Source of the DNA: an uncultured Eubacteriales bacterium
GTDB taxonomy: Bacteria; Bacillota; Clostridia; Oscillospirales; Acutalibacteraceae
Assembly: GCA_964515215.1 (NCBI GenBank)
Contig: CAZESL010000054.1
Span: 1 to 15,547, forward strand
DNA length: 15,547 nucleotides
Direction: 5' to 3'
Below the pieces are notes generated by a model, which saw nothing but the letters and a program-made list of their open reading frames with translations, was not told where the DNA came from and ran no database searches. Shown here in pieces: positions 2,026 to 2,391 of the stretch; within the stretch, counting starts at the first letter, position 1; every line of letters begins with the position of its first letter. The position numbers and the translations under genes were made by a program.

Positions 2026-2075
2026 CACCGCGGTGCACGAGGCGATGCCGCAGTGTATGCCTGAAGAAACACTTG

Positions 2076-2166
2076 CTCTGGCAATTTGATGGAGATAGGA
2101 AAATGGAGAACGCTCTGTTTTCTGAACTCTTAACAAATGGGGTTCGACTCCCCGTATTGCTTAGAG
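2076..2166 (+). ncRNA. tRNA-like element (T-arm plus acceptor-like stem) within the 360-nt leader/ncRNA; candidate Y-RNA (YrlA)-like module
   Basis: T-arm TGGGG(2138-2142)-TTCGACT-CCCCG(2150-2154) fits the tRNA T-loop consensus G53-T54-T55-C56-R57-A58-N-Y-C61 with a 5-bp stem. Immediately 3' of it, ATTGC(2156-2160)+AGAG pairs with CTCT(2076-2079)+GCAAT(2081-2085), giving an acceptor-like stem. No canonical D or anticodon arm was found, so it is not a real tRNA. Folding was manual only. Confidence 0.3.
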
Positions 2167-2391
2167 GGCTATGCCCACGCGTAAGTATAACGCGCTTCTT
2201 TCTCACAACGTGACTGCCGCGCAAAATACCCAGAATGCACTCGCCGCCTTGTCCGAATACGGATACCGCGACTCAAAACGGACGAACCAAAACGGTGGTT
2301 TCCGTTCGTCTGTACGGTCGCTCAAGTGTGCGGCCGCGACGTGTGCATGGGCGGTCATACGTCAATTATCCTTTAGGGAGGTCTACATACT

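Follow-up and report, generated by a model that had tools for sequence, protein, structure and literature searches.

A Band-7-linked, YrlA-like leader RNA lacking its tRNA-like core upstream of an RtcB operon in an uncultured Eubacteriales bacterium

A structured RNA precedes the Band-7 and RtcB genes

We analysed a stretch of 15,547 nucleotides from an uncultured Eubacteriales bacterium (GenBank assembly GCA_964515215.1, contig CAZESL010000054.1, positions 1 to 15,547 of the forward strand; hereafter the window), in which Pfam places genes for a DUF2828+DUF7788 protein, a Band_7/SPFH protein and RtcB in that order, all on the + strand, with a gap of 502 nt between the first two. The gap holds an RNA of about 400 nt that spans approximately 1989-2391, from a conserved promoter to the Band7 start codon. 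This RNA is non-coding, structured, under selection and linked to the Band7 gene, and it belongs to a family not found in Rfam whose more than 60 other members are alignable with very strong covariation and are built from a rod, a 5′ hairpin, T-arms and a YrlA-like core. The window copy is a core-less variant of this Band-7-associated, YrlA-like leader RNA, a theme already present in the literature. We consider it probable that 1989-2391 is the structured 5′ leader or non-coding RNA (ncRNA) of a Band-7(SPFH)-RtcB RNA-repair operon and serves as an RNA partner or scaffold of the Band-7/RtcB machinery. An earlier note, made from the sequence of the window, had described a promoter-driven non-coding region of 360 nt beginning at 2030; the region is indeed non-coding and structured, and its beginning moves to about 1989. 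The genes served by the leader (2392-4696) are an operon with the following parts:

2375-2381, + strand: Shine-Dalgarno sequence AGGGAGG, followed by the Band_7/SPFH ATG at 2392 (sequence, Pfam)
2392-3507, + strand: Band_7/SPFH gene (Pfam, E=5e-24)
3494-4696, + strand: RtcB gene (Pfam, E=4.4e-61)

Relatives were gathered in two sets. A DUF2828 profile gave 80 genome loci (L001-L080), in most of which RtcB directly follows DUF2828, with Band7 present in L035 and L062 only. A Band7 profile gave 80 metagenome loci, none of them with DUF2828 within 3 kb; among those that have upstream sequence, most carry the equivalent of window 1890-2391 directly upstream of Band7 (nhmmer). Because the leader is present at Band7 loci without DUF2828, the RNA travels with Band7. 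An independent Joint Genome Institute (JGI) contig, L161, has the same order of DUF2828, leader, Band7 and RtcB, with a leader 95% identical to that of the window. The homologues come from Oscillospiraceae/Ruminococcaceae-type Clostridia. Searches of plasmid and phage collections returned no similarity, and an origin in a mobile element was rejected on that ground.

From 5′ to 3′, members of the family carry a palindrome, a promoter, a 5′ hairpin, an optional accessory module, in most cases a tRNA-like core, and the rod. We described these parts with three models: R1 for the core of T-arm, acceptor hairpin and D-arm (62 positions), R2 for the rod and R3 for the accessory module of a stem, H2, and a T-arm, T1. 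Judged by these models the window belongs to the family, having the rod with its GGAUACC/CUYAA and CUUG/CCG loops together with the palindrome, the promoter block and the 5′ hairpin. The last three, with the 5′ hairpin reading GCGGUGCAC...GUGUAUGCC, lie at 1913-1982 and 2030-2060 and align with more than 40 loci.

The rod ties the leader to the Band7 gene

The best-covarying and most conserved part of the leader is its 3′ rod, which is not tRNA-like:

2235-2348, + strand: rod of four stacked helices with the hairpin 2281-2310 as its tip and invariant internal loops CUUG...C-CG and GGAUACC/CUYAA (covariation, R2)

Over the 114 nt of the rod, both partners vary in 34 of 38 pairs and 84% of cells are paired, giving a covariation score of 0.602 compared with 0.234±0.013 when shuffled and at most 0.171 when slid. 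Model R2, which was built without the window and without L161, scores window 2228-2361 at 90.4 bits over its full length (E=5e-27). It matches 63 Band7 loci, once each and always on the + strand, and none of the 78 loci without Band7. The rod thus goes with the Band7 gene rather than with RtcB or DUF2828; a link between leader and DUF2828 was rejected, since none of the 78 DUF2828 loci without Band7 has the leader. The nested hairpin pointed out in the earlier note is real and conserved with covariation: its outer stem (2281-2287/2304-2310) and inner stem (2290-2293/2298-2301) are helix 4, the tip of the rod.

Neither the rod nor the 5′ hairpin is in Rfam, and we found no published description of them; the prediction of Burroughs and Aravind was compared through the account of it in Wang et al. 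(2018), in which neither part is mentioned. At several loci (L082-L085, L091, L144, L146, L062 and L141) an open reading frame (ORF) of about 200 aa without a Pfam match is inserted between rod and Band7; the leader with its rod then remains at the 5′ end of the operon.

The T-arm belongs to an optional accessory module

The feature that had first drawn attention to this region is a tRNA-like T-arm, which lies at the end of a module that recurs in the family:

2073-2138, + strand: accessory module before the T-arm, with H1 UUGC/GCAA at 2073-2084, H2 AUUUG 2084-2088 paired with CAAAU 2134-2138, and an inner hairpin at 2098-2123 (covariation, minimum free energy [MFE])
2139-2153, + strand: T-arm GGGG/UUCGACU/CCCC with an optional U2138-G2154 pair, equivalent to the accessory T-arm (T1) of the family

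The T-stem pairs G2139-G2142 with C2150-C2153 around the 7-nt loop UUCGACU (2143-2149), which has all the canonical identities (U54, U55, C56, R57 and A58) and is closed by G53-C61. Of the T-loop with a 5-bp stem proposed in the earlier note, the canonical loop and four G-C pairs therefore stand, and the fifth pair turns out to be the U2138-G2154 wobble. Taken alone the T-loop motif is weakly significant: the window has a single copy of the 11-nt pattern GGTTCRANTCC, against a chance expectation of 0.09, and at least one match was found in 17 of 200 shuffles. We judge the T-arm to be real from its conservation, since 2117-2177 is identical in L161 and 11 other loci have a homologous GGGG/CCCC T-arm at the same place and in the same GGCA-H2 context.

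In the family, the accessory module runs through ...CUUGC...GGCA and stem H2 to a GGGG/CCCC T-arm that follows without a linker. The window T-arm is identified as this optional accessory T-arm by the sequence of its stem, by an H2 that joins it without a linker and by the GGCA upstream. It scores 19.2 bits with R3 (E about 0.003), a match that supports the type of T-arm only, as the model fails to span the 45-nt H2 insert of the window. H2 abuts the T-stem and covaries across relatives (AUCGA/UCGAU, AUCGC/GCGAU, AUCUG/CAGAU, GUCGC/GCGAC, GUCC/GGAU and AUUUG/CAAAU). It is also present in the MFE fold of 2000-2200, which consists of four abutting hairpins with the T-arm as the last.

Most relatives carry a tRNA-like core that the window lacks

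The R1 core, composed of a T arm, a loop-closed acceptor hairpin of 4-7 bp, with 7 bp in L081, and a D arm, mini or canonical, whose loop contains GG, was found at full length in 57 loci with scores of 38-71 bits. Its alignment contains 120 double-change cells compared with 47±5 in shuffles, and its covariation score is 0.363 compared with at most 0.141 when slid. In the window, R1 matches only the T-arm (2139-2153, 11.7 bits, model positions 11-25 of 62), and in L161 it has no match; the lineage is thus without acceptor hairpin and D arm. In DUF2828 loci without Band7, R1 gives only weak T-arm-type matches of at most 32 bits. The earlier note's comparison with YrlA-type Y RNA modules consequently holds for most of the family, in that 57 loci carry such a mimic, and fails for the window copy, which has no core.

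The same note had remarked on the missing D and anticodon arms and named tRNA-finding programs as a check. ARAGORN called no tRNA in the window and none in 65 of 66 homologous upstream regions. Rfam 15 gave no match at gathering threshold in the window and only chance-level matches at E≤10 in 1850-2450, with none to the tRNA family RF00005; in four canonical relatives it gave nothing besides one local match to the T-arm of transfer-messenger RNA (tmRNA) in one of them. Together with the T-arm-only R1 match, these results bear out the absence of the two arms, and the check itself returned neither a tRNA nor a family match. A true tRNA, a tRNA pseudogene or a tmRNA was rejected on the negative ARAGORN result and the lack of an RF00005 match even at E≤10, and a known Rfam family (riboswitch, T-box, leader or small RNA) because both gathering and E-value modes were negative.

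A cleaner YrlA-like unit was seen about 250-400 nt upstream of Band7 in distant loci (L153, L155, L156, L158 and L159), whose Band7 proteins are 42-45% identical. The unit opens with a closing stem and a T arm; the acceptor hairpin after these has 4 bp, the D arm is canonical (UAGCUCAGCGGUAGAGC), and AUGGYAA then leads on to a short stem and a second T-arm, of GGGG type. By eye, the closing stem seems to change on both sides (CUGAU/AUCAG, GCGAU/AUCGC, UUGAA/UUCAA). R2 finds no rod in these five loci. The module of GGCAA, stem and T-arm is old, and lies on the other side of the core in the distant loci. A closing stem CUUGC/GCAAG for the core of near relatives was examined by eye and was not established.

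A conserved palindrome and promoter block mark the 5′ boundary

Between the DUF2828 gene and the leader lie two conserved elements:

1913-1951, + strand: palindromic hairpin (GCUGUGAAC...GUUCGCAGC) followed by U7 (read by eye; conserved in more than 40 Band7 loci)
1952-1982, + strand: promoter block with CCGTGA, a -35-like GTGATT at 1954-1959, TG at 1974-1975 and the -10 element TACCAT at 1977-1982 (conservation)

Among the Band7 loci the palindrome shows a symmetric change from GCUG/CAGC to GUUG/CAAC. The hairpin with its U7 tract terminates the DUF2828 gene and probably serves as an operator too. In canonical loci, a pair of WYL and WCX genes resembling PafBC stands directly upstream, and the palindrome is probably the operator of such a PafBC-like WYL regulator. 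The TTCGCAGC-T7 box found at 1913-1951 also occurs upstream of the RNA arrays that precede DUF2828, and the whole block of palindrome, U7, CCGTGA and extended -10 element precedes both array and Band7 leader (window 1913-1982; L161 at about 1290-1330 and 3520-3590). This arrangement suggests one regulon with a common operator. The DUF2828 protein (Ro60-like by predicted fold), the PafBC-like WYL regulators and the shared operator would together form a candidate RNA-damage regulon in gut Clostridia.

The promoter block keeps a fixed spacing in 44 sequences, and in L081 a promoter scan called the homologous site as GTGAAA-17-TAAAAT with an upstream TG (9/12 matches). The earlier proposal that the region has its own promoter after the terminator of the upstream gene (there called vWA) is therefore supported by the conserved terminator hairpin, by a promoter block kept in more than 40 loci and by the call in L081, with the window's own site left uncalled. 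From the position of this block we infer a transcription start near 1989. An extended -10 promoter of sigma-70 type is preferred because it fits the sequence and was called in L081; a sigma-54 promoter at TGGTAC-N-TTGCA was rejected by eye, its GG/GC spacing being 2 nt too long. Further downstream, window 2178-2204 is weakly terminator-like, with a second hairpin at 2178-2194 followed by CUUCUUUCUC. An internal intrinsic terminator or attenuator was rejected, as this is a single weak site and the canonical leaders L081 and L090 have no comparable + strand internal terminator.

Comparison with known Ro60, Y RNA and RtcB systems

YrlA, whose gene neighbours Rsr and RtcB, is a tRNA mimic of the order V-T-AS-D (Chen et al., 2014; PMC4201824), and it is a stable ncRNA processed from operon transcripts beside Ro60/RtcB genes (PMC4201824). 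The features of YrlA also include binding by Ro60, with a helix for this made by its 5′ and 3′ ends, the modifications Psi55 and dihydrouridine and, in some members, cleavage by RNase P. Somewhat as with YrlA, the RNA described here lies beside RtcB and a protein that is Ro60-like by predicted fold, and would be co-transcribed with them. The family RNA follows YrlA in its permuted order, which runs from an optional V hairpin through the T arm and the loop-closed acceptor hairpin to the D arm, and it likewise lacks a free CCA end; in L153-L159 the D arm is canonical, and in four sequences read by eye the closing stem seems to change on both sides. The window copy departs from YrlA in having a T-arm only, with no acceptor hairpin or D arm to complete a T-AS-D domain, and in having no Ro60-binding helix with the motif GNCGAAN0-1G; the only GNCGAA found by inspection, GACGAA at 2281-2286, has no following G, lies inside the rod tip and is not conserved in position within the family. 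The RNA also differs in size, being about 400 nt long, and adds a large rod and a 5′ hairpin. Unlike YrlA, the family RNA is tied to Band-7 instead of the Ro60-like gene; its neighbour in the window, DUF2828, is Ro60-like by predicted fold only, and in metagenome loci the RNA occurs without DUF2828.

426-1889, + strand: gene for the DUF2828+DUF7788 protein of 487 aa, Ro60/TROVE-like by predicted fold (Pfam; context, outside the RNA)

The real start of this gene is at about 426 and its stop at 1889. An AlphaFold2 (AF2) model of the protein has a predicted local distance difference test score (pLDDT) of 70, and in a Foldseek comparison with the PDB its top 11 matches are all Ro60/TROVE proteins (E 7e-9 to 1e-4, template modelling [TM] scores 0.33-0.40). 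With solved Ro60 structures there is no sequence-level match, and kinship at that level was rejected, predicted fold alone being in agreement. The protein called vWA in the earlier note may thus be considered Ro60-like by predicted fold, with moderate confidence.

Bacterial RtcB repair operons are known to travel with Ro60/Y RNAs. A Band-7-associated tRNA-like RNA (b7a-tRNA) next to RtcB was predicted by Burroughs and Aravind (2016), who, as relayed in Wang et al. (2018; bioRxiv 10.1101/312249), also noted that YrlA sometimes lies next to Band-7. There b7a-tRNA is said to "strongly resemble an authentic tRNA", and the proposal is that a Band-7 scaffold uses it as its RNA partner in RNA repair. 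The window element has tRNA features and lies adjacent to Band-7 and RtcB, like b7a-tRNA. Compared by this secondary description, it differs in that neither it nor 65 of 66 homologous leaders are called as tRNA, the window element being negative with the Rfam tRNA model too.

The Salmonella operon rsr-yrlBA-rtcBA likewise unites a Ro60-type gene, ncRNAs and RtcB in one regulated unit, with Y RNAs between protein genes. Here, by contrast, Band-7 is inserted, no RtcA was seen within the window, the Ro60-like gene is preceded by a second ncRNA array, and the regulator in related loci is the PafBC-like WYL/WCX pair. The Salmonella rtcBA regulator is the sigma54/CARF protein RtcR. With tmRNA and viral tRNA-like T-arm modules, the window shares a 5-bp stem and a 7-nt UUCRANY loop, and differs from them in lacking both an aminoacylatable acceptor end and an mRNA-like part and in matching none of their families.

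The locus is probably a divergent Ro/Y-RNA/RtcB-type system with a Band-7-associated tRNA-like RNA. The suggestion of the earlier note that a tRNA mimic is encoded with RtcB stands as far as the Ro60-like/RtcB context goes, and needs amending in that the Band_7 gene lies between RNA and RtcB and the rod tracks Band7.

A proposed role in Band-7/RtcB-mediated repair, and regulation in cis

By analogy with these systems we propose the following course. Transcription would start from the conserved extended -10 promoter under a PafBC-like regulator, and the leader RNA would be made together with the Band7-RtcB operon, as with Ro60/Y RNA and the predicted b7a-tRNA, and would then provide the Band-7/RtcB machinery with an RNA partner or scaffold. 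Within this RNA, the rod could be a Band-7-linked protein-binding element and the T-arm, or T-arms, a tRNA-like handle for tRNA-binding enzymes. The lineage of the window has lost the permuted tRNA core and retained the 5′ hairpin, the accessory T-arm and the rod under purifying selection. The leader might also act as a substrate mimic, guide or ribonucleoprotein (RNP) component, as the earlier note had suggested.

Several points weigh against this proposal. The window lacks the tRNA-like core on which the Y RNA analogy is built, and the function given to the leader is itself drawn by analogy. The Ro60 likeness of DUF2828 comes from a model whose confidence is moderate (pLDDT 70, TM 0.33-0.40), sequence comparison gives no match, and a consensus promoter scan calls no promoter within the window. 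In the loci where it was worked out, the roughly constant, short distance from rod to first start codon, kept even with an ORF before Band7, suits regulation in cis at least as well as an RNP acting in trans.

This last point leads to the strongest alternative, to which we give a smaller though appreciable chance: a purely cis-acting leader, in which the Band7-RtcB mRNA has its translation or stability set by the rod, possibly together with the T-arm modules, and no separate ncRNA is needed. Control could be exerted by an autoregulatory operon protein, by the sensing of damaged or uncharged tRNA-like species, or by cutting of the leader by tRNA-targeting toxins. The strict linkage of the rod to Band7 is consistent with such a leader, as is its position, always on the + strand and upstream of the first ORF of the operon, including the loci with the inserted ORF of about 200 aa. 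In five loci measured by hand (the window, L081, L090, L116 and L133) the R2 match ends 28-34 nt before the first start codon, with exceptions of about 90-130 nt in L104, L109 and L139; the rod itself ends about 45 nt before the start codon. Canonical leaders have no internal + strand terminator, and the sequence just 5′ of the Shine-Dalgarno sequence is often complementary to it (e.g. AACCU-GAGG-AGGUU). However, we found no alternative terminator/antiterminator and no clear switch that would sequester the Shine-Dalgarno sequence, no Rfam riboswitch or leader family matches, and tRNA-like modules beside Ro60/RtcB are known as stable processed ncRNAs (YrlA; PMC4201824). Regulation in cis is also compatible with a role as RNA partner or scaffold rather than exclusive of it, and it is from the present context that we infer either an RNP cofactor or a cis regulator.

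Alternative folds of the 5′ half of the leader

The remaining elements of the 5′ half are:

2009-2029, + strand: 5′ hairpin GGUGA/UCACC (centroid fold; GUG...CAC conserved in the alignment; identical in L161)
2030-2060, + strand: conserved 5′ hairpin GCG-G-UGCAC / GUGUA-UGC with distal GGC-GAU-GCC (RNAalifold, 29 sequences)
2156-2165, + strand: 3′ strand of the "acceptor" proposed in the earlier note, UUGC 2157-2160 with GCAA 2081-2084 and AGA 2163-2165 with UCU 2077-2079 (centroid fold of 1989-2391)
2166-2194, + strand: hairpins GGGC-UAU-GCCC at 2166-2176 and CGCG-N9-CGCG at 2178-2194 (MFE and centroid folds)

The earlier note had joined the T-arm to a 3′ strand pairing about 70 nt upstream. 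In this view, a minihelix (2077-2084/2157-2165 stacked on 2137-2155) would mimic the top half of a tRNA and serve RtcB as a substrate mimic or guide. The pairing is present in the centroid fold of 1989-2391, where the closing helix appears with a 6-bp T stem; the T-loop is canonical, and the window and L161 do not differ in this segment, although their 4-fold sites diverge by about 20-35%. Against the minihelix, the closing pairing is absent from every other family member with an accessory T-arm. It overlaps both H1 and H2, helices backed by relatives, of which H2 covaries and is favoured by the MFE fold of 2000-2200. The helix is broken into 4+3 bp and lacks a free CCA-type end, and the family RNA is tied to Band7 rather than to RtcB or DUF2828. 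The covariation that the earlier note had asked for did not appear: the pairing is missing in relatives, and in L161, the sole close relative and the only one to share the segment, both strands are invariant, which leaves covariation untestable there. We regard the pairing as thermodynamically plausible in the window and lineage-specific, without comparative support, and the minihelix as an unlikely account of the RNA.

The 5′ hairpin at 2030-2060 is highly conserved, with 11 pairs. Its covariation is modest: pair 71/90 is GC in 15 sequences and AU in 13, and pair 78/83 varies on both sides. It is the starting point for a further reading, equally doubtful, in which 2030-2154 is a permuted tRNA-like unit, its four hairpins having tRNA-like connectivity with the chain opened between T stem and acceptor. 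In the MFE fold, 2030-2060 may take the place of the acceptor hairpin, 2059-2082 the D position, 2084-2138 the anticodon or variable position and 2139-2153 the T-arm. The leader would then belong to an undescribed composite class of one or two permuted units and a Band-7-specific rod, a sentinel or decoy for tRNA-targeting ribotoxins whose cleavage, or repair by RtcB, tunes Band7-RtcB expression; the core-less window would show that the second tRNA-like unit is dispensable. Positions 2053-2063 (GUGUAUGCCNG, the 3′ strand of the 5′ hairpin and the bases that follow) resemble the strand of the core that spans the acceptor hairpin and the start of the D-stem (AUGUAUGCCAG, L090 1118-1128). At the sequence level this likeness hints that the leader may have arisen by internal duplication of tRNA-like units.

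The leader is under structural selection and is not a gene or a remnant

Comparison of the window with L161 provides a measure of constraint. At 4-fold degenerate sites the three flanking genes are 64-83% identical, whereas 1989-2099 and 2117-2177 of the leader are 100% identical. The intervening 2100-2116 holds six differences, four of which are pair-preserving changes in the stem of hairpin 2098-2123 and two of which fall in its loop. Elsewhere, C2178-G2194 and, in the rod, C2272-G2317 are each replaced by a compensatory U-A pair in L161. As the leader is far better conserved than the 4-fold sites and its changes keep the pairing, we conclude that it is an RNA under structural selection, neither a remnant nor a gene.

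We therefore find it improbable that the T-arm is a decaying, non-functional leftover of a tRNA-like domain or tRNA gene after a deletion. The window and L161 do lack the T-AS-D core of 57 relatives, and ARAGORN and the Rfam tRNA model are negative, as such a remnant would have it. However, 2117-2177 shows no substitution while 17-36% of 4-fold sites differ (about 12 would be expected over 61 nt at about 20%), substitutions in the neighbouring helices preserve structure, and 11 other loci retain the accessory T-arm module, as do Band7 loci only 42-45% identical in protein. The lineage of the window instead represents a natural deletion of the tRNA-like core that is still under constraint, which argues that the rod and the accessory T-arm function alone.

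That the 3′ part encodes a small protein is barely credible: the ORF at 2171-2395 (74 aa) has an ATG start and a TGA that overlaps the Band7 start as ATGA, an arrangement suited to translational coupling, but its frame is split by a 1-nt indel into pieces of 25 and 46 aa in the 95%-identical L161, tblastn found no matches in about 60 homologous leaders save one weak one of 37 bits, and the alignment has indels that are not multiples of three and substitutions that follow base-pairing rather than codons. The coding ORF was rejected on the broken frame and the lack of protein-level conservation, in keeping with the non-coding status assigned in the earlier note.

Further observations at the locus

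The Band7 protein is stomatin-like over residues ~137-340, where its PDB matches are stomatin-type; Pfam and the PDB comparison assign no domain to its N-terminal ~150 residues. The last 14 nt of the Band7 gene are shared with the start of RtcB (3494-3507, + strand), which in sequence terms suggests that the two genes may be translationally coupled.

Downstream, the window contains a V/A-type ATPase operon (subunits I, D, B and A with DUF2764; minus strand, 5514-12361), a gene for a helix-turn-helix (HTH)-cupin-AMP-binding fusion protein (12849-15152, + strand) and an ORF at 4939-5628 without a Pfam match. All three appear unrelated to the leader RNA.

A second non-coding array lies upstream of DUF2828 (window 1-425, + strand; L161 1288-2028; L162 1-715; L001-L080). 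It consists of stem-closed units of about 80 nt with a 5′ ACAGCAAT motif, located in the window at about 179 and 318; positions 62-70 form a degenerate T-loop (GTTCGACTC). In most of the 80 DUF2828 loci, one to six copies of ACAGCAAT stand upstream of the gene, downstream of the TTCGCAGC-T7 box where that box was found (about 50 of 80). T-arm motifs or tRNA-like genes with odd anticodons precede DUF2828 in most loci of this set; such genes, which often accompany the array, have anticodons aat, ata, aac, aga, aaa and cta and low scores with the Rfam tRNA model. By analogy, the units of the array look like Y RNA counterparts of the Ro60-like DUF2828 protein.

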